This document shows positions 1,690 to 37,281 of a stretch of 64,000 nt of DNA, piece after piece. The DNA is from Patescibacteria group bacterium (GTDB lineage Bacteria > Patescibacteriota > CPR2 > UBA1875 > CAIMLA01). The stretch is from NCBI GenBank assembly GCA_041738615.1, contig JBGSPL010000004.1:129203-193202 (forward strand). Reading direction: 5' to 3'. Numbering within the stretch: position 1 is the stretch's first letter; the number at the start of each line of letters is the position of its first letter. Under the pieces are notes generated by a model. That model was not told where the DNA came from and searched no databases. It worked only from the letters and a program-made list of their open reading frames with translations. The translations under genes and the position numbers were made by a program.

Positions 1690-1718
1690 AATATAACACA
1701 AATGAGTGTAAAAGTCAA
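1690..1718 (-). promoter_or_regulatory. Putative tmRNA promoter (TTGACT-17-TATATT)
   Basis: The minus-strand sequence cTTGACTtttacactcatttgtgtTATATT lies about 45 nt upstream of the mature tmRNA 5' end, consistent with a processed precursor leader. Confidence 0.5.
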
Positions 1719-2119
1719 GATTAACTCAGGCACGAAGAAGGCCCGTATAGATGCGAGCCGGCGCTTTGTGGGCGCGAGCCAACTTCGATAACGGGCCCTT
1801 GTGAGGAAAGCTGATGTGTTAGCTTCCTCGGAGCTGAACGTGCGACACAAACCGGGTGGTGATGATTGGGAAGATCCCGAGCAGGTACCACTTGGTACGA
1901 ATCTGGATTCCCCCGGGGACGTGATCGATGTGACGATACGTTGGTGTGGATACCGGGACCGCTTCCCAGTACTGCGTTTTCGTGGCTGCTGTCACACTCT
2001 TTGTCGTCAAGTTGCTCGACAAAGCCGCAACTTTGCTATCCGAAGTCCTTCGCTTCATGCGAATCATCTCCAAGGTTCGTGCTCATCGAGCAGATGCCGA
2101 ACTATTTCGGCTAATGTGT
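1719..2119 (-). other. GC-rich untranslated segment (island 0) lying between two near-duplicate minus-strand promoters; possible structured RNA or long tmRNA-precursor leader
   Basis: GC is clearly higher than flanking DNA. Only overlapping ORFs without an SD are present. There are several strong hairpins, for example GAGGAAAGCTGA-TGTG-TTAGCTTCCTC. It is bounded by the promoters at 1690-1718 and 2120-2147. Confidence 0.3.
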
Positions 2120-2147
2120 ATTATAGCACAAATATACAAAAAGTCAA
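2120..2147 (-). promoter_or_regulatory. Second consensus promoter (TTGACT-16-TATAAT), a near-duplicate of the tmRNA promoter
   Basis: The minus strand reads aaCTTGACTTTTTgtatATTTGTGcTATAAT. It shares the 10-mer CTTGACTTTT, the 7-mer ATTTGTG and the -10 with the tmRNA promoter 430 nt downstream. Confidence 0.5.
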
Positions 2148-2148
2148 G

Positions 2149-3933
2149 TTATTTCTTGCGTGGTTTGGCGAGAACTTGTTTGCCAATTTCCGATGCGAGA
2201 AAGTAGCCTGTCCGTAGCCAGCCCTTGCGTGGGTTGAATCGGACATTTTGCTTGCCGGGATACCCTGACTTTAGCTGTGACTTTGAACTTAGCACTGACT
2301 CCTGATCAATCTCCGATAAAATTTCGTATTGTAGCTTCTTTTGCCACATATATTTCGGTGCTTCGTTATCTTTCCGCTTGGCCATATTTCTCTTAATATC
2401 CAAAATGGCGGTTATGGTCCAACCCTGTTCATGCTCGGGAGCGAATTGGTCGACAATCTCGCCGTCGCTACCAGTCTTCTTACTTACGTAGTCCAGAATG
2501 GGGTGGCCCTCTTTGTTCACAAAGAAAAATTCGTAGTGTTTACCTGCCATATTGACTCCGTTTAGGAGGCGTGTTTCGAGCTGTTCCGCTAGTCTTGGTA
2601 ACCCTTGGCGACGGAATCCCTTCGCAATCTTGTAGGTGTCGATAGGCCAGCTTACCAGGCTCCCGTGATAGTCTGCCACTGTGAAACCATCGGCATACTT
2701 GAGAGCTCGGGTTCTGATGCCGACGTCGGTAATAAACTCTTTGGAAAACAGCTGTTTGGTGATAGGCGTAATGTATTTTTGTTTTTCCTCTTCGGTGAGG
2801 TCGTCAAACAGCGAGGAGTCCAGTAGTCTGCCGCAGCTAGACTCAAGGGTGGTGACAGGTACCATCTCCCTATTTACGTCTTCTTCGAGACAGCTTATGA
2901 AAAAGTTGTTCTTAGCAGAATACATTTTTTCTCTGGTGTTTATCCTAATTCCCTGGGCTTTATTTCGAAGTTGCTCCGCTTTGTCTTTGTCTGCTTCAAG
3001 CGAAGCAGTAGAATCCAAGGCATCGATACAAAGAGATTGAATCTCGGGGTAAATTATCCGACCAGTGATATTTGCTAGGCTCCCATCGGGTTTCAGAATT
3101 GCGGTTAGAGAGTCCTTCCAGGTTTGTCCAAAATAGTTACCCTTTTTGTTTCGGCGCTCAACCTCTACTAGGCCCTCTGAACCAATATGGGAGGTAATCC
3201 ATCCCGCTGCACCTTCTACGGTATCTCGTATGGTCGCTGTTTCCTGGTCGTTTCTAACGACTTGTTGGTCCAGAATCTCTTCACCGTACAAAGAACAATA
3301 TTTACTAACGAGAAGAAGATAGAGGGGGGTAGAATCGGCAGCAAAGTAGGTAGTTTTCCACTCTGAATCAGAACTTCCTACCCAGGCTCTTTCGACTGCC
3401 TTGCCAATAGTTCTCTGTAGAAATCCACTGCCGTAAGCTTGATTTCTTGACTCGTGATGTATCTTTCCCGGTGACTCCTCTGTCTTTGCATTTTCTTTCG
3501 TGCCTTGTCTTTCTGCGAGTGAAACAATGATTTTAGTCGCTAGTTCCTGGTTGTGCTCTACTACTTCCAGACCAATCTCGGCCGAGTCACGCCCAAAGAC
3601 GGCCTGATCATACTTGCCTTCGGCACTAGCGCTCACACCATTCTCAGTTTCCACCTGTTTTAGTCCCTTGAGGGCGCTTGGCGGCACACACTGAGAAGCA
3701 GGGACTTCTGTCTGGGCAGGCTGCTCTGAAATAGCACCATCATCGCAAATAGTGAGATCTGGCGCCGTCCAGGCAGGTAGGGATTCGCCGGTTTCTACCG
3801 AGGCATGTTCTACTACAGTGGACTCTGGAATAACCTCTCCGTGGGCCTTCATAGCTTCTGCAACTTTCTCTTTGGCGTCAAAATCTGGAGTATTTGCTTC
3901 AGGCAAAGCGGGGTGGTTCTCAGCTAGCATCAC
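2149..3933 (-). CDS. Amylo-alpha-1,6-glucosidase / glycogen-debranching-enzyme-like six-hairpin glycoside hydrolase
   Basis: 594 aa. It contains the VFGRDS motif and overall resembles bacterial and archaeal GDE-family (alpha/alpha)6 barrel proteins. Confidence 0.5.
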   Translation of the reverse strand: MMLAENHPALPEANTPDFDAKEKVAEAMKAHGEVIPESTVVEHASVETGESLPAWTAPDLTICDDGAISEQPAQTEVPASQCVPPSALKGLKQVETENGVSASAEGKYDQAVFGRDSAEIGLEVVEHNQELATKIIVSLAERQGTKENAKTEESPGKIHHESRNQAYGSGFLQRTIGKAVERAWVGSSDSEWKTTYFAADSTPLYLLLVSKYCSLYGEEILDQQVVRNDQETATIRDTVEGAAGWITSHIGSEGLVEVERRNKKGNYFGQTWKDSLTAILKPDGSLANITGRIIYPEIQSLCIDALDSTASLEADKDKAEQLRNKAQGIRINTREKMYSAKNNFFISCLEEDVNREMVPVTTLESSCGRLLDSSLFDDLTEEEKQKYITPITKQLFSKEFITDVGIRTRALKYADGFTVADYHGSLVSWPIDTYKIAKGFRRQGLPRLAEQLETRLLNGVNMAGKHYEFFFVNKEGHPILDYVSKKTGSDGEIVDQFAPEHEQGWTITAILDIKRNMAKRKDNEAPKYMWQKKLQYEILSEIDQESVLSSKSQLKSGYPGKQNVRFNPRKGWLRTGYFLASEIGKQVLAKPRKK

Positions 3934-4969
3934 TCATACCCTCCTTGTCGTTAAATGACTTCAACCTCTGAAGGTAGATGAAACCAAGCCCAAGTGGGGC
4001 CCAGAAATTGAGCCCTCTGTAGGTGATAGAGATGGCAGTAGCACTGATGAGAGGTACACCAAAGGATGTGAATATTAGGACGAGTACGGCTTCTACGGCA
4101 CCTACTCCTTCCGGGTGTGGTGAAACGACACGAACAACCTCTGCAAATACATATCCAGCGATGATAGCACCATAGTGGATATGGATATCGAAAGCTGCGA
4201 AAACCACAAAGAGGGAAGTCACGTTCACGACATGGGCGAGGAGAGCGAAAGCTAGCGTTTCGGCAATCTTTTTGCCATGTCCATAGAGAGCCTCGGACGC
4301 AATAGTGAGCTCACCTACGATATGGGTAGCCCAATCTGCCGGTAGTTTTTTCTGTATTTTTAACTTGTGACAAATGTAGTTGAAAGTTTTTGCTAGAAAA
4401 TTCAAAAAGGAGGTAGTAGCTCGAGTCTTCTTGGTAGCAGTCAGAAGTAGTAAGGGAGGCAGAATAGTGGGAATGACGAAGATAGAGGCGCCAAACACTT
4501 CATAGCTATTTAGTAAACCGGACTTTTGTAGGAAGACGATGGCAAAGATCAGAAGAACAAAAAACGAAGAGTAGCTGGAGACAGTACTCACTAAATATCC
4601 CACCACAGCCTTGGTAGAGGATTCCCTCCTTCTTACAGCATCATCTGCAAAAAGGATAGTACCAGAGTTCCCGGCGGTCGGCGCCAGCGTGTTTACAAAA
4701 AGCGAACCGAGGACGAGAGGGAAGAGATCTTTGATATCCCTCTTTATGTCTACCGTCTCAAACGCCTTTTGGGTCATTAGGGAAAAAATGTAGTAGTAAA
4801 GTACTTGGGTTGCGGCGGCGAGAAGTAGCCAGCGCCAGCTACCCTGAGATAGGGCATTGATTACAGCGAGGAGTTCCTTCCAGTTTATGTAAGCGTAAAC
4901 TAGAAAGGTGAGAAGCAAGGCTCCTAAAAATAATTTTCGTTTAGAAACTTTAAAGTGTAGTATCTTCAA
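3920..4969 (-). CDS. Flippase-like membrane protein (UPF0104 / lysylphosphatidylglycerol synthase TM-region family)
   Basis: 349 aa polytopic membrane protein with a basic N-terminus. It overlaps the downstream glycosidase by 14 nt and the upstream GT2 by 20 nt, consistent with an operon. Confidence 0.5.
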   Translation of the reverse strand: MKILHFKVSKRKLFLGALLLTFLVYAYINWKELLAVINALSQGSWRWLLLAAATQVLYYYIFSLMTQKAFETVDIKRDIKDLFPLVLGSLFVNTLAPTAGNSGTILFADDAVRRRESSTKAVVGYLVSTVSSYSSFFVLLIFAIVFLQKSGLLNSYEVFGASIFVIPTILPPLLLLTATKKTRATTSFLNFLAKTFNYICHKLKIQKKLPADWATHIVGELTIASEALYGHGKKIAETLAFALLAHVVNVTSLFVVFAAFDIHIHYGAIIAGYVFAEVVRVVSPHPEGVGAVEAVLVLIFTSFGVPLISATAISITYRGLNFWAPLGLGFIYLQRLKSFNDKEGMSDAS

Positions 4970-7550: not shown

Positions 7551-9215
7551 TTGACGCTTAATTTCGAGTATAATGGCCCTATGATAACCGATAAAATAAC
7601 TGAATCAATTTTGTATTCACTTCAGCAAGTCTTTCAGCTTCATCTTAAGAGGGCTGACATCGAGGTCGTACAAACCTCCAGCAGAGAACACGGTGACTAC
7701 GCGAGTAATGTTGCTTTCCGACTGGCAAAGGAGCTTCACAAGAGTCCAAAGGAGATTGCAGAGGAGTTAGCGGTTTCGCTAAACGCTACTGGTGGCTTCA
7801 AAAAGGTTGAGGCCGTGAATGGCTTTGTGAATTTTTACCTAGATCACGAATATTTTCAGGGCATTGCTTCACAGATTTTGAAGGAAAAGGCTCATTATGC
7901 CGACCTGGATATCCTTAAGGGGAAGAAAGTACAAGTAGAGTTTATATCCGCCAATCCTACCGGTCCGCTGACTTTAGCGAACGGAAGAGGTGGTTTTGGT
8001 GGTGATGTACTAGCAAACGTATTTAGCAAAGTGGGCGCCAAAGTCGAACGAGAGTATTATGTCAACGATGGTGGTAATCAGGTAAAACTGCTCGGTGACT
8101 CTATCCTGGCAGCAGCAGGGAAACTAGAACCTTCCGACGATTTTTATAAAGGGCCTTATATCGAGGAATGGGCAAAAGATAACGCGAGAGCGATAGCAGA
8201 GACAAAGGATAGTTTTGCACTTGGTTCTATTGCAGCAGCCGAGCTTCTCGAGAAGAAAATTAAACCATCGGTTTCTCGGATGGGGATCCTCTTTGATCAG
8301 TGGTTCTCTGAAAAGGAGATGATTGACAGAGGCGAGGTAGATGAGGGGATTGAGAATCTCAAAAAATATGGGCACACTTATGAAAAAGACGGCGCTCTAT
8401 GGCTCAAGACCACTGAGAAGGCCGATGATAAAGATCGCGTAATCGTGAAGGCAGATGGCGAAAAGACATATTTCGCAAACGACATTGCTTATCATTTTGA
8501 TAAGTTCTACAAACGCAAATTCGACTTGGTAGTTAATTTCTGGGGTGCCGACCATCACGGTTATGTGGGTAGAATGATGGCTGCGGTGGCGCTTACTGTG
8601 GGTAGTGTGGGTACTTTGAGGATTGCTATCATGCAGATGGTTCGCCTTGTAAAGGATGGCCAGGAATACAAAATGTCGAAACGCAAGGGTACTTATGTCA
8701 CTATGGATGACCTGTTGGAGCTTATCGGGGGTACAGAGTCTGATGCTAGTGACGTTGCCAGATTCTTCTTTCTTTCACGTTCATTCAATACCCATATGGA
8801 CTTCGACCTTGACCTTGCCAAGGAACGGTCCGATAAGAACCCGGTATTCTATGTGAAGTATGCCTATGCCAGACTTTCTGGGATTTTGCGTAACGCAGAA
8901 GCAATGAAATTGCCAAAGCCAGATTTATCACTCCTTGTAGAGCCGCAGGAGACGGAGCTTATCGAGCAGATGGCACAGTTACCTCAGGTAATTGCCAGTA
9001 TCGTTACATTCGATGAGTACCCAGTTCACTTCCTAACCTTTTATGCGATTGATCTTGCGAAGAAGTTTCATGTTTTTTACGATAAATGCCGAGTAATAGA
9101 CGAAGAAAACTTGAGTCTCACGGCCGCACGTATAGAGCTGGTACGAGCAACGCAAATAGTTCTCGGCATCGTAATGCGAGACCTTATTGGGATTGATGCA
9201 CCAGAGAAGATGTAA
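7551..9215 (+). CDS. argS: Arginine--tRNA ligase (class I) with a degenerate HIGH motif
   Basis: Contains SANPTGPL...GRGG, MSKRKG and a C-terminal DALR domain (YVKYAYARLSGILRNA). HIGH is replaced by TLAN. Confidence 0.8.
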   Translation: MTLNFEYNGPMITDKITESILYSLQQVFQLHLKRADIEVVQTSSREHGDYASNVAFRLAKELHKSPKEIAEELAVSLNATGGFKKVEAVNGFVNFYLDHEYFQGIASQILKEKAHYADLDILKGKKVQVEFISANPTGPLTLANGRGGFGGDVLANVFSKVGAKVEREYYVNDGGNQVKLLGDSILAAAGKLEPSDDFYKGPYIEEWAKDNARAIAETKDSFALGSIAAAELLEKKIKPSVSRMGILFDQWFSEKEMIDRGEVDEGIENLKKYGHTYEKDGALWLKTTEKADDKDRVIVKADGEKTYFANDIAYHFDKFYKRKFDLVVNFWGADHHGYVGRMMAAVALTVGSVGTLRIAIMQMVRLVKDGQEYKMSKRKGTYVTMDDLLELIGGTESDASDVARFFFLSRSFNTHMDFDLDLAKERSDKNPVFYVKYAYARLSGILRNAEAMKLPKPDLSLLVEPQETELIEQMAQLPQVIASIVTFDEYPVHFLTFYAIDLAKKFHVFYDKCRVIDEENLSLTAARIELVRATQIVLGIVMRDLIGIDAPEKM

Positions 9216-9330
9216 TTTTTAACCGATGGACTTCTCTGAGCTGAAAGCAATCATCAAAAAACAGTGGCTTTACTTTTTACCACTGTTTATTTTTATTGTC
9301 TTATCCCTAGTCTTTGAGATTGTCAGCTTG

Positions 9331-11604
9331 CTACTGATTAAATTTGTATAGAGCACCGTCGGCAAAGACGTAAACTGTTTTGTTGGCATCATCTACCGAA
9401 ACGCCGCTAATATTCTTTAGTGTGGCGCCATTGTATTGACCGATGTACTTACCATTTGTGTCGGCACGGACTATAGATCCACTATTCGTCAGGTAAATCC
9501 CCGTAGTGTCTTCGTTCGCGAAGTTGCTACTGATGCCACTGAGGGTCAGAGGAAGGTCATTGATGCTGTAACTTTGCTTCTTACCGCCCAGATACTTTAC
9601 GGTATCCCCGTTTTTCTTAGTGGCATAAACGTTGCTATCGATTGCTAGCGCAATGGTATCTTTTGCCGTGCTGCCATCGGTAATGTAGGCAGTGCGTGCC
9701 GAGTATCCTGTAGAAGTTTTGGTTCTTTTGTAAATCTGGCCTGCCGCATCAACAGTATAGATATTTGTTGAGAAAGAGGCCATGGCTGTAGGTACTTCCA
9801 TGTCTCCAGCAATCGCTTGTTTGGTCAGAGTAACGTCTTTAACGTCAAATTCGTATAGGGCGCCTTTGTCGGTAAAGAGGACGATGGTGCTTCGGACCGT
9901 GACGGCTGTGACAGCGGCAACTTTGCCTTCTAGCTTTGGCTTATCGAGCACGTTTGAGGCTTCGCCGGCAAGGCTTACGGCTGCGATGCTCCCATTGTCT
10001 TTACTTATGATGTAGGCATTCTTCCCGATTACAAAAGGTCCAAAGGTATTTTTGCCTGTAATGTTTGTCGTGTCCGCTAGCTTACTAGTAGTCACTCTGG
10101 TGATTGCAAGGACTCCGTCTAGTGCGCTGTTGATATCTTTCTCTAGTGTAGAGACTCTGTCTTTTAGTGAAGGATTAGATTCTAGTCCTTTTGCGATACT
10201 AAGAGCACTATTTAGGGTATTTGCCGACTTGCCTCTATTGCCGCTTGCAGCTTCAGCCTTACCGATCGTGAGCTTGCTTTGAGCCTCTGTATAGCTCGCT
10301 TCTGCTAGTTTTTGGTGCTCTGCGTTTTCGCGCAATCTCCAGACGGCAAAGACACTGATGATAAGCACAAGCGCTAGCGCGGATGCGGCAATCAGTAGGT
10401 TTCTCTTATTCCCTTTGTTCTTTTTCAGTTTGTCGCCGAGTCTGTCCTTTAGTTTACCAGCATAGCTAAAGTCTATCTTCTCGAGCTTCAGCCACTTGGG
10501 TTTATTGTGGGATTCTTTAATGTGGATTACATTCCCGCTAGCCTTGGTAGTCTCTAAAAAGCTATTGGCGTGCTCGTTTACGGTAATATCAGAAAAATCA
10601 GCGGGAGCTTCACTAACCTCAATCACTTCTTTCGGCTTCTCAAGGGCCGCTGGCCTCTCCTTTTTCGATTTAATGTTTTGGCCGCCCTTGGTAATCAAAC
10701 CCGAGAGAGCGTCATAGGCGTCTAGAGTAGTGTCGTGAATCCAGGGCCATGCGCTTGCGACAATAAAGCCAGTCATTGCCTTCCAGCCTCGTCGGGTATA
10801 GTAGATGGCTTTCTGGGCAAAGGGAGCCGAGCGCTCAATCACGGTTTCCATCGGTTTATTTGGTTCAGTAAGCCAGACTTCATCATTAATCTCAGTAACA
10901 GTCTCTTCACTCGCGGCCTCTGGGGTGATGGCCTCAATAATAAGGATCGAGTTTGGCTGCATCTCTGTATTGTTACCTTCAAGTAGGTCGGCCAGGTGGC
11001 TTATCGCAATCTTTGGCTGGAATTCCTCGACATACTTTTGGAGTTCGTCTTTGGAAATATGGAAGAAGACTCCTGGAGTTACGGCAACAATCTTGTCTCC
11101 TTCTAGTAGGTCACCAGAGGCAATATTGGTAAAAGTTCGCAGCGGATTGATGTTATCACCGGCCAGCTCACGAGTGATGTGGCTTGATTTACCCCCTCGG
11201 TAGAGATAGGCTTCGGCTTTTCCTGTCTGGGTAATATGGATAGTATCACCGGTATGAACGGCAAGAATCGCATTCAGATTGTTTAGCCAGTGGATGTTGC
11301 CATTGTGGGTAATGTCAGCAAGCTCCTCGTTGACTCTGGCGAGAGCGGCCTCGAAGCTAGTGAGCGGATCTTTCTCGAGGTCTTGGTAGTATTCACCAAA
11401 AAAAGCGTCAACAATCAGTTCGGCGACCTCTTCGGCGCTAGCCGCAGGTGCGTTTACATTTACTAACGCATATATAGAACCATGATTACGTTCGTCGACA
11501 TCATTGGGATTGTGCTCATAGGCAATAGCTATGCCTTGATGCCGTCGGCTCCTCTTGGATTCACTCAAAAGTTTCGCTGTGCGCGCAATTAATTTTTTAT
11601 GCAT
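9331..11604 (-). CDS. Hypothetical single-pass membrane protein, 757 aa; the N-terminal cytoplasmic domain may be a degenerate PP2C-like fold, and the C-terminal extracytoplasmic part is a repeat-rich beta region
   Basis: A TM segment sits around aa 400. The stretch AILAVHTGDTIHI...AEAYLYRGGKSSHITRE loosely resembles the PP2C GDSRxYLxR region, but the DGMGG metal-binding motif is absent. Confidence 0.35.
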   Translation of the reverse strand: MHKKLIARTAKLLSESKRSRRHQGIAIAYEHNPNDVDERNHGSIYALVNVNAPAASAEEVAELIVDAFFGEYYQDLEKDPLTSFEAALARVNEELADITHNGNIHWLNNLNAILAVHTGDTIHITQTGKAEAYLYRGGKSSHITRELAGDNINPLRTFTNIASGDLLEGDKIVAVTPGVFFHISKDELQKYVEEFQPKIAISHLADLLEGNNTEMQPNSILIIEAITPEAASEETVTEINDEVWLTEPNKPMETVIERSAPFAQKAIYYTRRGWKAMTGFIVASAWPWIHDTTLDAYDALSGLITKGGQNIKSKKERPAALEKPKEVIEVSEAPADFSDITVNEHANSFLETTKASGNVIHIKESHNKPKWLKLEKIDFSYAGKLKDRLGDKLKKNKGNKRNLLIAASALALVLIISVFAVWRLRENAEHQKLAEASYTEAQSKLTIGKAEAASGNRGKSANTLNSALSIAKGLESNPSLKDRVSTLEKDINSALDGVLAITRVTTSKLADTTNITGKNTFGPFVIGKNAYIISKDNGSIAAVSLAGEASNVLDKPKLEGKVAAVTAVTVRSTIVLFTDKGALYEFDVKDVTLTKQAIAGDMEVPTAMASFSTNIYTVDAAGQIYKRTKTSTGYSARTAYITDGSTAKDTIALAIDSNVYATKKNGDTVKYLGGKKQSYSINDLPLTLSGISSNFANEDTTGIYLTNSGSIVRADTNGKYIGQYNGATLKNISGVSVDDANKTVYVFADGALYKFNQ

Positions 11605-11739
11605 TCCTAAGGCCTTAATACGTAAGAAACTATAACACTTTTGTGCGGTTATGACAATTATTTGTAGGTTAAATTATTCTGTTGATTTATGGCCCAAAAA
11701 GAGTAGTATATGCTCATCGCAGCCGGAGAGGGAGGGGCT

Positions 11740-11880
11740 ATGAACCAATGGGGGCCGATTGACTGGGCCAGTTTCTGGCTCATCGTTCTGACCGTCCTCG
11801 GAGTCGGGGGCATGATGCTCGCAGTTTGGCTTGGCGGTGCCGCTCAGAGATCACAGCGGCGCATGGAGAACATCGAGTAA
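11740..11880 (+). CDS. Small single-TM protein (46 aa) in GC-rich island A
   Basis: A GGAGGGG SD lies 5 nt upstream of the ATG. The product is MNQWGPIDWASFWLIVLTVLGVGGMMLAVWLGGAAQRSQRRMENIE. Confidence 0.45.
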   Translation: MNQWGPIDWASFWLIVLTVLGVGGMMLAVWLGGAAQRSQRRMENIE

Positions 11881-11892
11881 GGAGGGGTCCCG

Positions 11893-12033
11893 ATGTACGA
11901 CATTCCAATGTGGGCGGTCTATACCATCGGAGCCGTAGCCGTCTTGGCGGCGAGCGCCTTCTTCAAGACAGTCTTGTGGGAGAAATCGATTGAGGAAGTA
12001 GAGGAGGAACAGGGCGCTGTAGACGCCACCTGA
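11893..12033 (+). CDS. Small single-TM protein (46 aa) in GC-rich island A
   Basis: A GGAGGGG SD lies 5 nt upstream of the ATG. The product is MYDIPMWAVYTIGAVAVLAASAFFKTVLWEKSIEEVEEEQGAVDAT. Confidence 0.45.
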   Translation: MYDIPMWAVYTIGAVAVLAASAFFKTVLWEKSIEEVEEEQGAVDAT

Positions 12034-12077
12034 CAGGTACTCGCTAAGTGCGAATCTCGATTGAAAGGAACTGTCCG

Positions 12078-12326
12078 ATGGATTCCCCAGTGTTCATGCC
12101 CTCATCAGAGTGGCAGCTAGGCTTTGCAGCGGCATGCGGTTTCGGTGTCCTCGTATTCTTCGGAATCAGCAGGATGCTCAGCCGATCACAGATCAAGAGT
12201 GACGATGTCTCGGCAGACATCGACGGACTCTATCCGCGCGAGGTCAACGAGATCGACGACGACCCGGTCGGGAACTACGAGGCGAGCATTGCACGGGCTA
12301 CCGGTCTCGACGGCGCGCCGTCCTAG
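12078..12326 (+). CDS. Small single-TM protein (82 aa) with an acidic C-terminal tail in GC-rich island A
   Basis: An AAAGGA SD precedes the start. The ORF runs 12048-12326, with an internal ATG at 12078 better placed relative to the SD. Confidence 0.4.
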   Translation: MDSPVFMPSSEWQLGFAAACGFGVLVFFGISRMLSRSQIKSDDVSADIDGLYPREVNEIDDDPVGNYEASIARATGLDGAPS

Positions 12327-12371
12327 CCACACAGGCGCCTGGCAGGCGCGAACACCTACCTCGAGTGGAGG

Positions 12372-12410
12372 GACCCGGATTACTGCTTTGGCGGTCTCCG
12401 GGTTTTTGTT
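12372..12410 (+). terminator. Putative intrinsic terminator closing island A
   Basis: A CCCGGA...TCCGGG hairpin is followed by TTTTTGTTTG. Confidence 0.45.
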
Positions 12411-12453: not shown

Positions 12454-12702
12454 ATGTATACAAGAATTGATAAAAAGATAAAAACGATAGCCCTTTTTGA
12501 AAACGGGAAGGTAATTCCGAAGATTTTTCGCTATGCAAACCGTGACTACAAAGTAAGGGGAATCAGCCTAGCTTATCAGGAACGGGAGGGTCGGTCGGTA
12601 AATTACTATTTTGGTATTGAGACCGATGAGGGCGGTGTCTATAAGCTTCATTACAACGACGAGAAACTCACCTGGTGGTTGGACGAAGTATGGCAAGATT
12701 AA
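12454..12702 (+). CDS. Hypothetical small protein (82 aa) immediately upstream of dinB and overlapping it
   Basis: Globular-looking sequence with no TM segment. Its stop overlaps the dinB start by 13 nt, suggesting translational coupling. Confidence 0.45.
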   Translation: MYTRIDKKIKTIALFENGKVIPKIFRYANRDYKVRGISLAYQEREGRSVNYYFGIETDEGGVYKLHYNDEKLTWWLDEVWQD

Positions 12703-13904
12703 TCCTTCATATCGATATGAACTCGTATTTTGCCACTGTGGAGCAGCAGGCGAACCCGAAACTTCGTGGCAAACCGATTGCCGTGATGGGCAGTACGGCA
12801 AAGCGGAGCATTATCGTTGCGGCAAGTATAGAGGCCAAGCGCTACGGGGTAAAGACCGCAACTAGGATAGATGAGGCGTTACGGCTCTGCCCTGAGCTGG
12901 TACTTGTAAACGGCGAACCGCGCAAATATAGCTGGGTGACGAAGAAGTTTATCGACATATTTGAGGGCTACACAGATAAGGTGGAGATCTTTTCTATAGA
13001 CGAGGCGTTTCTAGACGTGACCAAGACGGCAAATATTTATGGTGGGGCAGAGCAAATCGCTCTATCCATCAAGCAGCGGATTCGCGATGAGATTGGTAGC
13101 TACATCTCCTGCTCAGTAGGGATTGCAAAGAACAAATTTCTAGCAAAGACAGGCAGTGACCTCAAGAAGCCTGACGGTCTCACTATTATTACAGATGAGA
13201 ATGTTGATGACATTCTATTGTCGCTGCCCCTTTGTGAATTCTGCGGCATCGGCAAGCGGATCTTAGCGCGGCTAGGGGCCCTGGGAATCGGAACTACGCA
13301 ACAGCTGCGAGATTACCCAAACGTGCTTCTAAACAGGGAATTCGGAATCGCTAGTGGCGAGAAACTAAAAAGAATGGCCTACGGCATGGACAGCTCGCCG
13401 GTAATCAGTCGTCACGACAGGGCTGATGCCAAGTCTTATGGACATTCCAGGACCCTGAACAAGAATGTTACGGACAGAAATGAAATACGAAAGCATATGT
13501 TGCTTCTCTCCGAGAAGGTGGCCACGAGGATGCGCAAAGATGGCTGTATGGCTAAGGAGGTGGGGCTTTGGATTCGTTTTGGTGACTTTACCGGAGTGGG
13601 GCAACGTCATCGTATCGGCAAGTGGACCCACGATGGAGTAGAAGTATACGATGCAGCGGTAAAAATACTGGAGTTACTAGATCTACGGGCGCCGGTACGG
13701 GCCATCGGGGTCTACGCGGCCCAGATTCAGAGGGATTCCCATACGACTGCTAGTTTGCTTCCGGAAGATACGATAAACGACAAGATTCTGGCTGCTATGG
13801 ACGCCGTGAATAACCGTTTTGGTGAGACGGTAGTAACTCGTGCTAGACTGGCTGGAGTAAAAATCAAGGAGGTGGTTTCTGGTATGGGGAGGGATAAGTT
13901 CTAA
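12690..13904 (+). CDS. dinB: DNA polymerase IV (Y-family, DinB)
   Basis: LILHIDMNSYFATVEQ...SIDEAFLDVT... are the UmuC/DinB palm motifs. Start is taken at MARLILH. Confidence 0.85.
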   Translation: MARLILHIDMNSYFATVEQQANPKLRGKPIAVMGSTAKRSIIVAASIEAKRYGVKTATRIDEALRLCPELVLVNGEPRKYSWVTKKFIDIFEGYTDKVEIFSIDEAFLDVTKTANIYGGAEQIALSIKQRIRDEIGSYISCSVGIAKNKFLAKTGSDLKKPDGLTIITDENVDDILLSLPLCEFCGIGKRILARLGALGIGTTQQLRDYPNVLLNREFGIASGEKLKRMAYGMDSSPVISRHDRADAKSYGHSRTLNKNVTDRNEIRKHMLLLSEKVATRMRKDGCMAKEVGLWIRFGDFTGVGQRHRIGKWTHDGVEVYDAAVKILELLDLRAPVRAIGVYAAQIQRDSHTTASLLPEDTINDKILAAMDAVNNRFGETVVTRARLAGVKIKEVVSGMGRDKF

Positions 13905-13909
13905 AAATG

Positions 13910-13938
13910 TTGACGGCACATTCCCCGAGGTTTATATT
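13910..13938 (+). promoter_or_regulatory. Near-consensus promoter TTGACG-17-TATATT
   Basis: It lies directly after the dinB stop and opens GC-rich island B. Confidence 0.5.
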
Positions 13939-13945
13939 AACGATA

Positions 13946-14534
13946 CGCTGAAAGACCTGAATACTCGGAATTAGGGTTATCTAAGCGTGTTCCTAGACCC
14001 CTGCAACCGCAACTGCCTTTTGTTAGTAGCATGTGCCGACGCCGGGAGAACGTGTAGGAAAAACAAGATATTGCTGCGAGATCAACACCTCTCCGAGTGG
14101 GTGGGTTTCTCGCAAAGCGGGACTTTGCATTTTAGGCCGCTGGTAACTCGACTAACGAGTGGCCCACGCCGAAACGAGGGTGCACCCCTAGTCCATTGGG
14201 GCCTCGTGTTGCATTAAAGTCCAAGTCTATAACGTACCAGCATCTGTTCAGGTACCACTTGTAGGCGCATGTCCTGGTCGAAACGCTGCATTACTGCTGT
14301 CCTAGAGGCGGTAGGGGTGCAAGATCACTGATCAGGCAAGATAAGGTGCCATTAAGGCCCATATAGTACAGTCGCGTAATATCGCCACGAAGCAGAGAGC
14401 TCGGGCGCGGAGGCTGTCAGCGGGAACCGATTGGTACAAAGCTAGGCCGGCATGGTTGACCGTTACTGTGGTCACTTTGCCCTCGTTCGCGGATTTTGTA
14501 CCGCGATCACGGGGGCCATGCCGGCCCCTTTCAT
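13946..14534 (+). ncRNA. Candidate structured ncRNA 1 (about 590 nt, class unknown) in island B
   Basis: It is bounded by the promoter at 13910-13938 and the terminator at 14511-14534. GC is about 58%. There is no SD-led ORF. Multiple stable hairpins are present. Confidence 0.4.
14511..14534 (+). terminator. Intrinsic terminator (GGGGCC-AUGCC-GGCCCC followed by UUUCAU)
   Basis: 6 bp GC stem plus a U-run, ending 14 nt before the next -35 box. Confidence 0.55.
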
Positions 14535-14547
14535 GACTACAAACGCC

Positions 14548-14576
14548 TTGACAAAAAGGCTTTACGGGCGTATAAT
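14548..14576 (+). promoter_or_regulatory. Perfect consensus promoter TTGACA-17-TATAAT
   Basis: The sequence ttgacaaaaaggctttacgggcgtataat was read directly. Confidence 0.6.
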
Positions 14577-14583
14577 TCATTTT

Positions 14584-15139: not shown

Positions 15140-15144
15140 ACATT

Positions 15145-24215: not shown

Positions 24216-24216
24216 T

Positions 24217-24666: not shown

Positions 24667-24766
24667 AAAATGAACTTGCCAACCATGAGACTAAAACAAA
24701 ATACGTTGACCATGGGGACGGTTACTACGAGAGAATCATTTCAGAGATAGAGAAGGCACTTTGTTC

Positions 24767-25471
24767 ATGAAGTATGCAGAGGTAATGCAGCAGCTCGAAT
24801 CGCTAGCCAGCCATGATCCAAAGGACTTGGCCGGAATGGCACGGTTTGGAATAAACGTCGATAAAGCCTGGGTGATTAGTATCCCGAAGTTACGAATATT
24901 GGCAAAAGAAGTTGGGAAGGATCATCAACTCGCTCTTAAGGTCTGGGATTCCGGAATTCATGAAGCAAAGATCCTGGCGGGGTTCATTGACGATCCGAAG
25001 CTGGTTACGGCGGAACAGATGGAGAAATGGGCTCTAGATTTCGATTCCTGGGATGTGACGGACATGATTTGCGGTAACCTCTTTGACCGGACAGAGAATG
25101 CAGTGCAGAAGGCGATAGAGTGGTCCACGCGAGAGGAGACGTTTGTAAAGAGGGCAGGTTTTGTAATCATGGCCGGTCTCGCTGTTCATGACAAAAAGAT
25201 GGCAGATAAGCAATTCGTCGAGTTTTTAGAGACTATAAAGTGTGAATCAGGAGATAATCGCAATTTTGTCCGTAAGGCAGTGAACTGGGCTCTTCGCGCC
25301 ATTGGGAAGAGCAGGAATCGGTATCTCTATGAAAAGACCTTATCAACAGCCAGAGAAATACTGCAATCTAGCCAAGGCTGGAGCGATGAAGAAAAGAAGG
25401 CGGCTCGATTTATCGCCGGTGACGCCCTCCGAGAACTAGAAAAAGAATACATTCGTAAGCGTTTTCTCTAG
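24767..25471 (+). CDS. DNA alkylation repair enzyme (AlkD/AlkC-like HEAT-like repeat glycosylase family)
   Basis: 235 aa all-helical protein matching the DNA_alkylation (AlkD-like) family. The ORF opens with TTG at 24761, but ATG 24767 is preferred. Confidence 0.55.
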   Translation: MKYAEVMQQLESLASHDPKDLAGMARFGINVDKAWVISIPKLRILAKEVGKDHQLALKVWDSGIHEAKILAGFIDDPKLVTAEQMEKWALDFDSWDVTDMICGNLFDRTENAVQKAIEWSTREETFVKRAGFVIMAGLAVHDKKMADKQFVEFLETIKCESGDNRNFVRKAVNWALRAIGKSRNRYLYEKTLSTAREILQSSQGWSDEEKKAARFIAGDALRELEKEYIRKRFL

Positions 25472-25493
25472 AAAGAACTCTCTACATAAAAAG

Positions 25494-25524
25494 CAGAAAG
25501 GGAGACGCGCGGTCTCGCTTTCTG
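25494..25524. terminator. Bidirectional terminator hairpin between the AlkD-like gene and the island D gene
   Basis: CAGAAAGGGAGAC-GCGCG-GTCTCGCTTTCTG, a 12-13 bp stem, with an A-run upstream and a T-run on the minus-strand side. Confidence 0.6.
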
Positions 25525-25547
25525 TAAAGCAATGACGCAAGTCTCCC

Positions 25548-25961
25548 TTACCAGGATCGTCTCTGGTGACTATCACGGGACATCCCGCGGGTAGCCTGGT
25601 TTGCGGCAGCGAAAGAGGTGTTAATGCGCCGGGTGTGATCGTGTGCCTCCTGTTCTCTTTCGGCGCGCCAAGTGGCTCGTACTTTAGCGAACCTGTTTTG
25701 GCTGACATAGGTCTGGAGCTCCTCTTGAATTTCCTCACTCATTCTCTTGCGCAGTTCTATATCGACCAAATAGCGGGTGCCGTTACGGCTGAGTGGTGCA
25801 TCGGACCACTTGCTATGGTCACTCAGGGCGCGCAAGACTGGGTCTGGCAGACCAGCATTATTCTTCTGTACCAAGCCATGAGAGCCATGAAACAGAAGGC
25901 AGAGAGCCAGGGCCAAGCGAAGCTCGGGGTCTTCGGTGGAGCGAACAATCTTCGGTACCAT
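25548..25961 (-). CDS. Hypothetical protein (138 aa, basic C-terminus) in GC-rich island D
   Basis: A GAGGAG SD lies 7 nt upstream of the ATG at 25961 (MVPKIVRSTEDPEL...). The ORF extends to 26015 but has no SD there. Confidence 0.5.
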   Translation of the reverse strand: MVPKIVRSTEDPELRLALALCLLFHGSHGLVQKNNAGLPDPVLRALSDHSKWSDAPLSRNGTRYLVDIELRKRMSEEIQEELQTYVSQNRFAKVRATWRAEREQEAHDHTRRINTSFAAANQATRGMSRDSHQRRSW

Positions 25962-26005
25962 CCCTGGGCTCCTCTCGATATTGTCGGGTTTTGGGACGTG
26001 CGAGG

Positions 26006-26034
26006 ATTTTAACACAGAAATGTGTTTTCTTCAA
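26006..26034 (-). promoter_or_regulatory. Consensus promoter TTGAAG-17-TAAAAT for the island D gene
   Basis: The minus strand reads ttgaagaaaacacatttctgtgttaaaat. Confidence 0.55.
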
Positions 26035-26163
26035 TCGAAAGATGGTTTTTGTTGCGATCTTGCAAAAAAGATTTGACGGCAATTTCCAGGGGGGCTAAAA
26101 TAATTGTAGTAAATGAGGTGGTGGTCCCAATATTTGGGACCTTTTAAGAGATAGAAGGGAGTC

Positions 26164-27771
26164 GTGTTGGGTAAAGATACCAAATACATTTTTGTTACTG
26201 GTGGTGTAATCTCGGGTCTCGGCAAGGGGATATTTGGTGCCTCTATCGGCAACATCCTCAAAAGTCGGGGCTTTTCTGTAAACATGCAAAAGTGTGATCC
26301 GTATCTCAACGTCGATGCCGGTACCCTCAATCCTGGAGAACACGGCGAAGTTTTCGTCACTGACGATGGCGCCGAAACAGACCTAGACCTCGGACACTAC
26401 GAGCGCTTCATCGATACACCGATGACCAAGCTCTCTTCCGTGATGACAGGAAAAATTTACACACAAGTTCTCGAAGACGAGCGTAAAGGAAAATATCTTG
26501 GCAAGACGGTACAGGTCATCCCTCATATCACAAACAAGATTCAAGACAACATCATAAACGCGGCAGGTGACTTTGACATCCATATCGTAGAGATCGGAGG
26601 CACGGTTGGCGATTATGAGGGTTTGCACTTTATCGAGGCTATCCGTCAAATGCGTCGTAGGATAGGCCGCGAGAATGTGCTCTACGCGCACCTGGTTTAT
26701 TTGCCATTTATTGAGGCATCCAAGGAGCTCAAGACAAAACCAGCACAGAATAGTGTGCGAGACTTATTGCAGCTTGGGATTCATGCAAATATTGTCGCTT
26801 GTCGTGCTGATCATGCTATCGAACAGGAGCATCTGGCAAAAATTGCTCTCTATGCCGATGTCGACGAAAAAGCGGTGGTTCCACTGCCTACAATAAACAG
26901 TGTCTACAAAGTACCTCACAACCTTGAGAAAGTGGGACTGGGTGATTATATCTGCGAGAAACTGAACCTGCCTATCCGTAAACCAAAGGAGAACGGCTTG
27001 GCCAAGTATCTGGTGGACCTAGAAAAGTCGGACAAAGAGGTGAAGATTGGGCTCATAGCAAAGTATATGTCTAACGAGGATACCTACAAGAGTGTAAATG
27101 AGGCTATCCAGGCAGCAACGGTAAATAACGGTGCTTGCGCGAAGATTGTTTGGATAGATGCAGAGAAGATCGAGAAAGCAGGAACAGATGTTCTGAAGGA
27201 CCTTGATGGGATTGTCGTTCCTGGTGGCTTTGGAAATCGCGGCACACTGGGCAAAGTGATGGCTGCGCAGTATGCTCGCGAGAATAATGTTCCTTATCTT
27301 GGGCTTTGCCTAGGGATGCAAATCGCTACTATCGAGTTTGCACGCAATGTTCTCGGTTGGAAGGATGCTGATAGCGAAGAATTCAGACCAGAGGGCAAGT
27401 GTAATGTAATCCATATCATGCCAGAGCAGAAGGCGATTATGGACAAGGACGAATACGGGGCTACCATGCGTCTCGGGGCTTACCCTTGCGTTTTGGACAA
27501 AAAATCTCGATCTTTCAAGCTCTATGGCGAAGAGAAAATTAGCGAGCGACATCGCCATCGCTTTGAATTCAATAATGATCACCGGGAAGAGTTCACGGCC
27601 GCCGGACTATTATTCGCCGGTCTTTCGCCGAACCACCACTTGGTAGAGATAGTTGAAATTCCAGAACACAAGTTCTATGTAGGAGTACAGTTCCACCCTG
27701 AGTTCAAGAGCCGTCCGGGCAATCCGCACCCCTTGTTTGATGGATTTGTGAAAGCTATACTCGGGAAATAA
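26164..27771 (+). CDS. pyrG: CTP synthase
   Basis: KYIFVTGGVISGLGKGI N-terminus and a C-terminal glutamine amidotransferase domain with GLCLGMQ. GTG/TTG start. Confidence 0.9.
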   Translation: MLGKDTKYIFVTGGVISGLGKGIFGASIGNILKSRGFSVNMQKCDPYLNVDAGTLNPGEHGEVFVTDDGAETDLDLGHYERFIDTPMTKLSSVMTGKIYTQVLEDERKGKYLGKTVQVIPHITNKIQDNIINAAGDFDIHIVEIGGTVGDYEGLHFIEAIRQMRRRIGRENVLYAHLVYLPFIEASKELKTKPAQNSVRDLLQLGIHANIVACRADHAIEQEHLAKIALYADVDEKAVVPLPTINSVYKVPHNLEKVGLGDYICEKLNLPIRKPKENGLAKYLVDLEKSDKEVKIGLIAKYMSNEDTYKSVNEAIQAATVNNGACAKIVWIDAEKIEKAGTDVLKDLDGIVVPGGFGNRGTLGKVMAAQYARENNVPYLGLCLGMQIATIEFARNVLGWKDADSEEFRPEGKCNVIHIMPEQKAIMDKDEYGATMRLGAYPCVLDKKSRSFKLYGEEKISERHRHRFEFNNDHREEFTAAGLLFAGLSPNHHLVEIVEIPEHKFYVGVQFHPEFKSRPGNPHPLFDGFVKAILGK

Positions 27772-36558: not shown

Positions 36559-36587
36559 TTGACAAAAGCGGATAAAGGTGTATAATA
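36559..36587 (+). promoter_or_regulatory. Perfect consensus promoter TTGACA-17-TATAAT opening GC-rich island E
   Basis: The sequence ttgacaaaagcggataaaggtgtataat was read directly. Confidence 0.6.
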
Positions 36588-36676
36588 TTACGATAACTCA
36601 GGAAACATGTTTCCTTTGTGTCGTACCGCGGCCACGTGTCGCATACAATCCACGTACAATAGCCTGGGAGGCTTCC

Positions 36677-36811
36677 ATGGAATCAATCTTGGCTGATTAC
36701 TTTCGTGAGCGCTTGAGGGTTTCCTTGAGGGCACTCTACTTCATAGGCGTGTTCCTTCTCTTTTTGGGGGAAGCGCTCGTGGAGGACGCCTTGCGTCCTT
36801 TCAAGTTGTAG
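36677..36811 (+). CDS. Mini-ORF (44 aa, hydrophobic C-half) in island E
   Basis: A GGGAGG SD lies 6 nt upstream of the ATG. The product is MESILADYFRERLRVSLRALYFIGVFLLFLGEALVEDALRPFKL. Confidence 0.35.
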   Translation: MESILADYFRERLRVSLRALYFIGVFLLFLGEALVEDALRPFKL

Positions 36812-36918
36812 TCCATCGGGGACAATACGCAACTAGGACCCCGTTAGACGACCGCAGCCGGACGGTTTCCGGAAGGTTCCCCTCCCTCGTTGGAGGGGTC
36901 GAGCAAGGAGGTATCTCC

Positions 36919-37035
36919 ATGAAGGTCACTCGCAACGCAGTCGCCGTTCGCGGCACCCCGGTCGTCGGCAGCATCGGTCATACTTCAATTGATTCCGTCG
37001 CCAACGGCGCGCGCGCCGGCACGGGCCTGCTCTAG
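36919..37035 (+). CDS. Mini-ORF (38 aa) in island E
   Basis: An AAGGAGG SD lies 7 nt upstream of the ATG. It is preceded by the hairpin CCCCTCC-ctcgtt-GGAGGGG. Confidence 0.3.
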   Translation: MKVTRNAVAVRGTPVVGSIGHTSIDSVANGARAGTGLL

Positions 37036-37281
37036 GGCCCGGTCGTCTAGCCTCGGATCGTAGCTCCCGTAGGACGGGAGATCTGAGGCGCCAGCACTGT
37101 CCCCAGGTTTCAGACCAGGAACTCTCTTGGGGCGAAGCACTTGTACGTGGGAAAATGGGGTCGGTATGACTCACGTCTCGGTTGCCAACGACGGGCAACA
37201 GGCGTGGGTCGTACCGGCCCTTTCCCTTTTGTTGGCGGATGTATACTTGTTTCTTTCTCTCTGGCGCTCTAGAATAACTGT

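Follow-up and report, generated by a model that had tools for sequence, protein, structure and literature searches.

Six GC-rich intergenic islands, probably autonomous units of the accessory genome of a Saccharibacteria clade

OLE, GOLLD and ROOL, all of which are in Rfam, are large bacterial non-coding RNAs of unknown or only recently studied function. GOLLD and ROOL often adjoin tRNA genes. Here we describe a 64-kb stretch of DNA, termed the window, from the genome of an uncultured Saccharibacteria (CPR; 46.9% GC), in which a first-pass annotation had recognized six GC-rich intergenic islands at positions 1719-2119, 11690-12410, 13905-15145, 19400-20117, 25494-26034 and 36559-37275 (islands 1 to 6). 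Sliding GC windows and ORF gaps agree that these islands are real: each occupies a gap that separates backbone ORFs and, over the 64 kb, the only 400-nt windows exceeding 54.5% GC fall in the six islands and in one marginal segment at 54534-54950. The contrast with the backbone was correctly perceived, but the initial figure for the islands (58-62%, with a backbone put at about 45% GC) was too high, the islands having 54.0-58.4% GC over the above coordinates and 54-59% over their transcribed parts, with local peaks of 0.58-0.635, against 46.2% for the backbone and 34-44% for ordinary intergenic DNA. GC changes sharply at the island edges, and every codon position shares in the rise, as do the non-coding parts. 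GC3 of the island ORFs ranges from.59 to.77, and the island genes depart from the backbone in codon and amino-acid usage (C3.36 against.25; Lys 2.4% against 7.6%; Arg 6.8% against 4.4%), whereas the dinucleotide signature of the islands is indistinguishable from that of the backbone (delta*.049 vs a null of.040 +/-.014). Structure or strong transcription was rejected as the sole cause of GC-richness, since the tmRNA gene of the window reaches just 47.5% GC.

Promoter-like sites are concentrated in the islands more than expected by chance: within the first 40 kb, the four sites matching the consensus at 11 or 12 of the 12 positions all lie inside islands, whose share of this DNA is about 11%. 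Strong promoters are linked with GC-rich DNA clade-wide, as 16 of the 21 sites of at least 11/12 in 13 related loci point into DNA whose GC exceeds the locus mean by 6 points or more, against a background rate of 11% (Mann-Whitney p = 3e-7). With a scan threshold of 9/12, the promoter of at least 10/12 that had been attributed to each island was recovered in islands 1, 3 (10/12 and 12/12), 4 (11/12) and 6 (12/12) but not in islands 2 (about 8/12) and 5 (9/12). GGAGG-type SD sequences can be read in the DNA ahead of the small ORFs, and at the end of every island stands a stable hairpin rich in GC with a U-rich tail behind it, weak in the case of island 1. Each island would be driven by its own housekeeping-sigma promoter, among which are the best consensus matches of the region, and the coding islands would be translated from a strong GGAGG SD; since each has an intrinsic terminator, the islands would be insulated from the flanking housekeeping operons. 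Judging from promoter and SD strength, their expression may be high. Islands 2, 4 and 5 would produce orphan small proteins, island 6 a 44-aa peptide together with a long non-coding tail, and islands 3 and, probably, 1 non-coding RNAs of 0.4-0.6 kb. This largely agrees with the contents initially proposed (small peptides, small soluble proteins and non-coding RNA, with their own promoter, SD and terminator).

The promoter of island 2 (TTGATT-16-TAGTAT, 11682-11709, plus strand) is weak and, being below the scan threshold, was read by eye. On the same strand follow two 46-aa putative single-pass membrane peptides, gene 1 (11740-11880, SD GGGAGGGG, GC1/2/3 =.60/.45/.72) and gene 2 (11893-12033, SD AAGGAGGGG), then gene 3 (12078-12326, GC1/2/3 =.60/.46/.72), predicted to encode an 82-aa acidic membrane protein with a hydrophobic stretch, and a terminator hairpin (12374-12402) followed by UUUUUGUUUG, with hairpin arms that are altered in the relative L001 yet still pair. 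Peptides of this island are present in L001, L003 and L004, with a GC3 of.81 for the transmembrane peptide of L003. L001 and L003 have 42-aa counterparts of gene 1 in the corresponding position, and the motif LWEKSIEEV of gene 2 resembles FWEENIEEL in a 78-aa protein of L003 (BLASTP, E = 2.5e-5 against a very small database, with 52% identity across 23 aa); a clear orthologue of gene 3 was not found. For one membrane peptide, an actinobacterial holin family and a spanin PHROG came up as borderline matches, both at E = 0.05.

Island 4, also on the plus strand, carries a promoter detected by the scan (TTGAAA-17-TATAAT, 11/12, 19421-19449) and a leader (19450-19503) with the hairpin GCAGC-UUAU-GCUGC and the SD AAGGAG, which shares 94% identity with L001 and was also detected in L003 by nhmmer. 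Two acidic, predicted soluble proteins follow, p91 (91 aa, 19504-19779) and p90 (90 aa, 19792-20064, TTG start, SD AAGGAGGTGG), and the island ends with a terminator (20086-20120) consisting of GCCCCGCGCGGGGC and UUUUG. Orthologues of p91 occupy the same place in L001 (63% aa identity) and L003 (40%, GC3.75), and a word search of 5.8e9 proteins returned p91 itself and the L001 orthologue only. p90 is 50-52% identical to its L001 counterpart; the second position in L003 holds a 99-aa ORF whose likeness to p90 is by eye only, a tblastn match being absent there. Mismatches with L001 are 3-periodic in both genes, with dN/dS ~0.2.

Island 5 is read from the minus strand, from a promoter found by the scan (TTGAAG-17-TAAAAT with TG, 9/12, 26006-26034) through a leader, TAAAATCCTCGCACGTnCC, that is kept in a distant relative, to a terminator hairpin able to act bidirectionally (25494-25524). 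Its gene (25548-25961) would encode p137, a 137-aa basic protein (pI 9.9) with 72% aa identity to its L001 orthologue, coding periodicity and dN/dS ~0.2. A full HMMER search of 1.84e9 representatives gave 10 matches, one of which is the L001 orthologue, and the one distant family member that was checked shows the same synteny in L167, another Saccharibacteria genome. Profile searches of PDB, Pfam and NCBIfam found nothing. The AF2 model (pLDDT 84.4) has the topology H-H-H-strand-strand followed by a 35-residue helix, and Foldseek returned weak matches (best E = 0.2), many of those listed being wHTH regulators. p137 is probably, according to this model, a winged helix with a long C-terminal helix from a rare family, and it may bind DNA. 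Taken together, the substitution patterns of the island protein genes show fast evolution, yet under purifying selection.

Upstream of rmuC, island 6 begins with a perfect promoter in the scan (TTGACA-16-TATAAT, 12/12, 36559-36586, plus strand), whose context GTGTTGACAAAA is common to six genomes, and a leader (36593-36676, plus strand) with the motif ACCGCGG...ACAAyyCACGTwCAA, common to the window, L162, L163, L165 and L170. This unit exists in six genomes with two types of interior between shared ends. It holds two small ORFs. The first, for a 44-aa hydrophobic peptide (ORF44, 36677-36811, plus strand), is retained by L162, and the mismatches between the two fall predominantly on third positions of codons (12, 5, 19), a coding-like pattern; L170 has a small ORF at the same place. 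The second, a 38-aa ORF at 36919-37035, is doubtful as a gene, its substitution pattern relative to L162 not being coding-like. It lies in a putative non-coding tail (36812-37232, plus strand) that displays no periodicity and 20 indel columns, whose other ORFs are all broken in L162, and which ends with a 29-bp hairpin (37157-37225, -52.9 kcal/mol) followed by UUUCCCUUUU.

Downstream of dinB, island 3 is made of two tandem non-coding RNA genes of about 0.6 kb on the plus strand, as far as comparison with L001 indicates: codon periodicity is missing, indels are many and ORFs of at least 35 aa are never intact in that orthologue. No Rfam family matched even at E <= 5. The first RNA (13945-14540, ~600 nt) follows a scanned promoter (TTGACG-17-TATATT, 10/12, 13910-13938) that is conserved in L001 and has equivalents in L082 and L003; it is 78% identical to L001 with 27 indel columns, and its 3' end is a three-way structure (14445-14528, -51.5 kcal/mol). 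A 12-bp hairpin within it (14075-14114), with the conserved loop CUCCGAGU, shows 3 compensatory pairs and 0 broken among the window, L001 and L003, and a search with a model of this hairpin retrieved nothing beyond these three sequences. The second RNA (14583-15140, ~560 nt) has a perfect promoter in the same scan (TTGACA-17-TATAAT, 12/12, 14548-14576) and the terminator GAAGGCC-UUCG-GGCCUUU. Its 3' 330 nt (14812-15140) align with L001 at 79% identity, with many indels and no periodicity, whereas its 5' 230 nt (14583-14811) occur in the window alone, a 107-nt tRNA-like element standing there in L001; such an element opens this RNA in both L001 and L004. The window, L001, L082 and L003 all have the pair of RNA genes after dinB, and in L082 the promoter, leader and terminator are conserved around an unalignable interior.

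The product of island 1 is probably also a non-coding RNA, a predicted minus-strand transcript of about 390 nt (1722-2112, 54.7% GC; folding z = -3.8 on the minus and -2.5 on the plus strand) that terminates at a long hairpin with imperfect pairing (1737-1799), its U tail being weak. Its promoter, retrieved by the scan at 2147-2120 (TTGACT-16-TATAAT with TG, 11/12, minus strand), resembles that of tmRNA (1718-1690). The plus-strand ORF of 138 aa (1801-2217) lacks a coding GC signature (GC1/2/3 =.55/.47/.47), and the promoter is on the minus strand; the basic protein that had been announced is p137 of island 5. The non-coding islands may act at the RNA level.

The nearest relative (L001/L162) has islands 2-6 in matching positions and with equally raised GC, which the first-pass annotation itself had named as evidence against insertion. 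One or another of islands 2, 3, 4, 5 and 6 is also present in more distant relatives, and orthologues were recovered in MAGs of other samples. The indel idea survives in part: islands 4 and 5 are missing from L082, and island 1 is missing from L001 and L004 (no relative carries it), so that these loci are dispensable and turn over. The window and L001 are far apart, DinB having 95% protein identity but only 52% identity at third codon positions (pS 0.71), and island-gene dS ranges from 1.0 to 2.4, against 2.2 for the flanking DinB. The orthologues keep a GC3 of.56-.81, against.36-.56 for the backbone, and polarised third-position changes are 40 GC>AT vs 26. We read the raised GC as a lasting feature of these loci and not as the fading trace of a recent import. 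We consider it probable that the islands are six unrelated, chromosomally inherited autonomous units belonging to the accessory genome of one Saccharibacteria clade.

Other origins were weighed against this one. That the islands result from assembly or binning, GC-rich reads of another organism having been joined to this genome, might be suspected of a metagenome-assembled genome with abrupt composition shifts at island edges, but is next to inconceivable: an independent assembly, from Logan for run SRR28170474, shows 100% identity across 13.5 kb (12706-26209), which excludes chimerism for islands 3-5, and the orthologous islands come from MAGs of other samples. The first-pass annotation had argued for a foreign origin and offered, as one possibility, that the islands form a family of small moron-like cassettes, mobile or derived from phages, in line with compact promoter-ORF-terminator units, a composition unlike that of the backbone and the borderline holin and spanin matches. 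This is very unlikely, given that phage, plasmid and IMG/VR collections yielded zero island matches, that the islands share no detectable similarity with each other, that dinucleotides are backbone-like and that several genomes have the orthologous islands in identical positions; the absence of terminal direct or inverted repeats, and of any integrase or transposase, points the same way.

An old import from high-GC donors (for instance actinobacterial hosts, their phages or GC-richer Saccharibacteria), fixed before the window, L001 and L003 split and followed by partial drift to host composition, with promoters gained or optimised later, is a more serious although still rather unlikely alternative. 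It would account for the high-GC-like codon and amino-acid usage and GC3 of island genes, for the uneven presence of islands among relatives and for the mild GC>AT excess, compatible with slow GC decay, and thyX, tmk and dcd-dut in a related genome are similarly GC-rich (GC3.61-.64). However, island-protein homologues outside this Saccharibacteria group were absent from 5.8e9 proteins by word search and, for p137, from the 1.84e9 representatives; delta* is within its null; and orthologue GC3 stays high despite saturated synonymous divergence, being highest in the most distant genome, L003, when passive drift should have removed it. GC-biased gene conversion, acting through recombination or natural transformation on islands that would be hotspots of allele exchange via their conserved flanks, bears on the cause of GC-richness rather than on island contents and seems improbable to us. 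The conserved ends and divergent interiors at the dinB-downstream locus of L082 and at the rmuC-upstream locus would fit, as would a GC raised at every codon position and in non-coding parts, but island-gene dS does not exceed that of DinB, so the window/L001 pair gives no sign of allele import, and identities suggest that one change on the tree can explain the two rmuC-upstream interiors.

As inherited autonomous units, the islands can be compared with several known systems. They share with phage morons the promoter-small ORF-terminator layout between genes and a distinct composition, but differ by the lack of prophage context or phage homologues and by fixed positions in several genomes. Islands 2 and 6 recall type I toxins, holins and small membrane-protein operons by their 42-46-aa single-pass peptides with charged tails; here, however, an antisense RNA or lysis partner was not identified, the family matches remain borderline, and three peptides would be co-translated in one operon from strong SDs. 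Islands 1 and 3, like the tail of island 6, are of the kind sought by the GC-IGR approach (Breaker laboratory, PMC8632094), as long GC-rich gaps with their own promoter and terminator and no conserved ORF, but half of the islands are protein-coding, tmRNA, the bona fide structured RNA of the window, is not GC-rich, and, for 3a and 3b (the first and second RNAs of island 3) and for the island 6 tail, the single-sequence MFE pairs of the window are no better preserved in the orthologue than in slid controls. The island RNAs differ from OLE, GOLLD and ROOL in their lack of Rfam matches and of a prophage and in being unalignable in L082; they resemble them in size (0.5-0.6 kb), strong conservation blocks and narrow phyletic range, and the tRNA-like element in L001 and L004 recalls the tRNA adjacency of GOLLD and ROOL. 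Finally, p137, while differing from MarR/NadR, the IclR N-domain and Sso10a in having no significant sequence or fold match, is like them in its predicted topology of a winged helix with a long helix.

The six GC-rich intergenic stretches (islands 1 to 6, at 1719-2119, 11690-12410, 13905-15145, 19400-20117, 25494-26034 and 36559-37275) represent a real architecture. The first-pass annotation had put their composition at 58-62% GC; the enrichment stands and the figure is overstated, the same intervals measuring 54.0-58.4% in a window of 46.9% GC. Windows of 400 nt exceeding 54.5% GC were found only in the islands and, marginally, at 54534-54950 inside the second of two giant ORFs. These ORFs are adjacent paralogues of 2918 and 3097 aa (44624-53380 and 53483-62776) with the common N-terminus MAQRPRFLKAR. 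The transcribed parts of the islands reach 54-59% GC, against 46% for the backbone and 34-44% for ordinary intergenic spacers, whereas the tmRNA gene (1239-1634, minus strand; Rfam 96.6 bits) is unlike them in displaying the genome average, 47.5%. Promoters matching the E. coli sigma70 consensus at 10 or more of 12 positions had been attributed to every island, which holds for islands 1, 3, 4 and 6 and fails for islands 2 (about 8/12) and 5 (minus strand, 9/12 plus a TG extension). The sole 12/12 matches in the first 40 kb (14548 and 36559) and the sole 11/12 matches (2147 on the minus strand and 19421) all lie in islands, and the promoter of island 3a, the first half of island 3, matches at 10/12. 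At the end of each island a stable GC-rich hairpin precedes a U-rich tail, in agreement with the terminators previously proposed.

The nearest relatives of DinB, BipA, RmuC and other backbone proteins are encoded by metagenome-assembled Saccharibacteria (CPR/Patescibacteria) genomes. The best relative, locus L001 (CAZCRI010000001.1), shares 95% identity in DinB, 99% in BipA and 96% in RmuC and is colinear with the window from the tmRNA gene through pyrG. When the related loci are ranked by how closely their DinB, BipA and other backbone proteins match those of the window, L001/L162 comes first, followed by L082, then by L163/L164/L167 and L165, and finally by L003, L002 and L004. Despite the 95% protein identity, only 52% of the third codon positions of DinB agree between the window and L001 (pS 0.71), synonymous sites being saturated. 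We also observed in the window an array in which Ser_hydrolase and Peptidase_S51 paralogues alternate (21335-23766; 177, 219, 217 and 196 aa), their stop and start codons overlapping, the Pfam labels being taken from the gene calls of related locus L081. Immediately before dinB, and overlapping its start, is an 82-aa ORF of backbone composition (12454-12702) that has a conserved 81-aa counterpart in L004 and falls into no family.

The interpretation of the islands as foreign mobile or phage-derived, moron-like cassettes proved to be wrong, every tested feature of mobility or phage origin being absent. The annotation had itself seen no shared terminal repeats and no integrase, and rightly so: no direct or inverted terminal repeats of at least 14 nt and no recombinase among the ORFs could be detected, the sole repeat recovered in the search being a promoter resemblance between 1690-1718 and 2120-2147. 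No match to phages or plasmids was obtained by blastn and tblastn, nor by IMG/VR scans with DNA and protein. A PHROGs search of the island proteins returned nothing better than E = 0.012; these proteins have no significant Pfam, PHROGs or NCBIfam family, and when seven of them were screened together with two relatives, PADLOC gave no defence-system match at E <= 0.1. The islands share no similarity with one another, each matching only itself within the window, and those of the relatives match only the syntenic island. Synteny likewise contradicts insertion, since islands 2, 3, 4, 5 and 6 all have GC-rich counterparts at the corresponding positions of L001/L162, the very observation that the annotation had named as telling against it; DNA identity to the window is 73-79% for islands 3-6. 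Islands 4 and 5 are missing from locus L082, most plausibly through loss, given that L003 and L167, which are more distant, carry those genes. Chimeric assembly, suggested as a possible artefact, is contradicted for islands 3, 4 and 5 by the Logan assembly of run SRR28170474, which is 100% identical to window 12706-26209, the segment that spans them. Atypical base composition is a hallmark of recently acquired genomic islands that the present islands do share. Their composition-corrected dinucleotide signature, a weak test over 4.3 kb, gave a delta* of.049 as compared to a null of.040 ±.014, which is within the backbone's internal scatter; 22% of random backbone sets were as distant. We conclude from the sequence that the islands consist of small genes and RNA genes that are native and dispensable, and predict that their expression is probably strong.

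Island 4 encodes two proteins, p91 (19504-19779) and p90 (19792-20064), and island 5 encodes p137 (25548-25961, minus strand), with respectively 63, 50 and 72% protein identity to L001. Mismatches between the window and L001 are three-periodic in all three, with a dN/dS of about 0.2; they are genuine genes under purifying selection, evolving about 10 times faster than DinB. A 20-nt inverted repeat, 85% complementary with its arms 30 nt apart, is located inside the p91 coding sequence (19528-19597). For p137, a word search of 5.8 billion proteins retrieved the L001 orthologue only, and among 1.84 billion representatives a full HMMER profile search retrieved ten proteins: this orthologue and nine more distant relatives of 121-158 aa, except one of 1106 aa. 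One of the distant relatives, from the Saccharibacteria genome L167, is syntenic, its gene lying between pyrG and a DNA-alkylation-repair gene and sharing the leader TAAAATCCTCGCACGT with that of p137. A confident AlphaFold model from the ten-sequence alignment (pLDDT 84.4, pTM 0.74), used in place of a poor two-sequence AF2 model (pLDDT 56), predicts a helix-helix-helix-hairpin topology followed by a long helix. Its Foldseek matches are statistically weak (E >= 0.2) and many are winged-helix regulators (MarR/NadR, IclR, PadR, BrxR, LysR) or Sso10a. We infer from the model and these matches that p137 is a putative small DNA-binding protein, which may be autoregulated.

The small membrane peptides of island 2 are supported by codon-position composition (GC1>GC2<GC3), synteny and weak protein similarity, their divergence being too large for codon-periodicity or dN/dS tests. 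Small single-pass membrane proteins occupy the same place in L001, L003 and L004, and one motif is common to the window (LWEKSIEEV) and L003 (FWEENIEEL). In island 6, the 44-aa ORF is coding-like, as are p91, p90 and p137, and the 38-aa ORF is not. Six genomes have in common at this place, upstream of rmuC, the promoter context GTGTTGACAAAA...TATAAT, the leader motif ACCGCGG...ACAAyyCACGTwCAA and a terminal hairpin, located immediately before the rmuC promoter. Within this frame we found two types of interior, a small ORF (window, L162, L170) or a non-coding sequence (L163 ~9300-10000, L165 ~9135-10000, L169 ~2516-3000), the latter sharing the block CACGTAGTGTT; promoter, leader and terminator are common to both types. 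The 138-aa ORF at island 1 carries no coding signature, and this island is now read on the opposite strand. Its promoter (2120-2147, minus strand) is a near-copy of the tmRNA promoter (1690-1718, minus strand): CTTGACTTTT...ATTTGTGyTATAwT. Island 1 and the adjacent gene for a 594-aa MGH1-like glycoside hydrolase (2149-3933, minus strand) are missing next to tmRNA in L001 and L004.

Island 3, downstream of dinB, consists of two successive units: promoter 13910 precedes an RNA of ~600 nt (RNA #1, 13945-14540, plus strand) with a three-way terminal structure, and promoter 14548 precedes an RNA of ~560 nt (RNA #2, 14583-15140, plus strand) with a terminator. This double promoter-terminator layout was also observed downstream of dinB in L001, L082 and L003. 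Identity to L001 is 78-79% in islands 3a and 3b, well in excess of the 52% seen at the neutral DinB third positions, and the alignments display no periodicity and many indels. Hidden ORFs were considered and rejected, all ORFs of at least 35 aa being broken in L001, and by these comparisons island 3 is non-coding. Its sequence similarity reaches L001 only, plus the 5' 220 nt of RNA #1 in L003; with blastn, nhmmer and a hairpin covariance model, RNA #1 was found in L001 and L003 only, and not in L082 or any other locus. A hairpin at 14075-14114 keeps all 12 pairs in the three genomes, with three compensatory changes and none broken, and RNAalifold, run on two-sequence alignments, detected 9 and 6 compensatory pairs. 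In a stricter test, pairs of the window's single-sequence MFE structure transferred to the orthologue performed no better than slid controls, and a global structure of the island 3 RNAs is therefore putative. RNA #2 begins in L001 (11923-12029) and L004 (9868-9972) with a tRNA-like element of 105-107 nt carrying a ~30-nt insert, which is called a tRNA by Rfam (43.6 and 46 bits) but not by ARAGORN; at this place the window carries 230 unrelated nt (14583-14811) that fold well (z = -3.5). There is no tRNA gene within the 64-kb window, and neither Rfam 15, at the gathering threshold and at E <= 5, nor ARAGORN finds anything in any island, the only Rfam hit being tmRNA at 1239-1634. An RNase P identity for island 3a, considered by eye from the motifs AAAGUCC, GGUAxGGGUG and ACAGAGAG, was dropped because motif order and pairing do not fit. 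In L082, which is without islands 4 and 5, a GC-rich unit of 1.05 kb with two promoters and two terminators follows dinB (1265-2313); its terminator regions alone resemble those of the window, the interior having no detectable similarity.

Third-position GC (GC3) is.59-.77 in island genes as compared to.37-.56 in backbone genes, and island genes prefer C-ending codons and are Lys-poor and Arg-rich. The excess persists in orthologues across saturated divergence: GC3 of p91 is.67 in the window,.58 in L001 and about.76 in L003; that of the island 2 membrane peptide (42 aa in L001 and L003) is.72,.62 and.81 in the same order; and that of p137 is.59 in the window,.65 in L001 and.57 in L167. Changes at third positions polarised with an outgroup numbered 40 GC>AT against 26 AT>GC, a difference short of significance and, given the saturation, unreliable. 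Because tmRNA is not GC-rich, neither structure nor strong transcription can by itself account for the GC-richness of the islands. In L167 (1052-3102 and 7919-8956), the genes thyX, thymidylate kinase (tmk) and dUTPase/dCMP-deaminase (dcd-dut) have a GC3 of.61-.64 as compared to.36-.45 for their neighbours, suggesting that GC-richness marks accessory genes in this group. Furthermore, of the 21 promoter-like sites that match at 11/12 or better in 13 related loci, 16 point into DNA whose GC exceeds that of the locus by 6 points or more, against a background rate of 11% (Mann-Whitney p = 3e-7, the sites being not fully independent owing to orthology). Possible causes of the island composition are an old import from a high-GC donor, GC-biased gene conversion where loci are prone to exchange, and selection favouring short, GC-rich transcripts.

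The gene and RNA families of the islands are new and their kinds familiar, and the island pattern is real and reproducible across the clade; our literature search found no description of such a pattern in Saccharibacteria. We tentatively propose, while leaning somewhat against it ourselves, that this clade keeps dispersed, strongly promoted loci at a second, GC-rich equilibrium, produced by a locus-specific force (transcript-stability selection or biased gene conversion) and not by foreign origin. These loci would include at least three undescribed functional large ncRNAs of 0.4-0.65 kb, a tandem pair downstream of dinB and a third upstream of rmuC, constituting new classes in ultra-small episymbionts; the loci would hold fixed positions and evolve rapidly within a conserved frame of promoter, leader and terminator. 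In the tiny genomes of CPR bacteria, each retained non-housekeeping locus is a candidate for episymbiotic biology. In place of a vague signal of foreign cassettes there is now a concrete list of loci whose promoters, terminators and orthologues are defined: a conserved family of orphan proteins that probably bind DNA (p137), a pair of operons for small orphan proteins, a locus combining a peptide with an RNA, and large candidate ncRNAs, two or three in number. Consensus promoters facing GC-rich DNA offer a clade-wide rule for finding further such loci. The puzzle lies in fast-evolving accessory genes that stand 10-20 GC points above their surroundings while the tmRNA gene of the same genome does not.

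Compared with known systems, the islands are laid out like phage morons and differ from them in showing none of the tested features of mobility or phage origin. Their predicted hydrophobic peptides fit the toxins of type I toxin-antitoxin systems in size and hydrophobicity. The island RNAs are similar in size to OLE, GOLLD and ROOL and, having no Rfam match, are not members of those families. Long GC-rich intergenic regions are a signal for finding bacterial ncRNAs (PMC8632094), and the islands fit that pattern.
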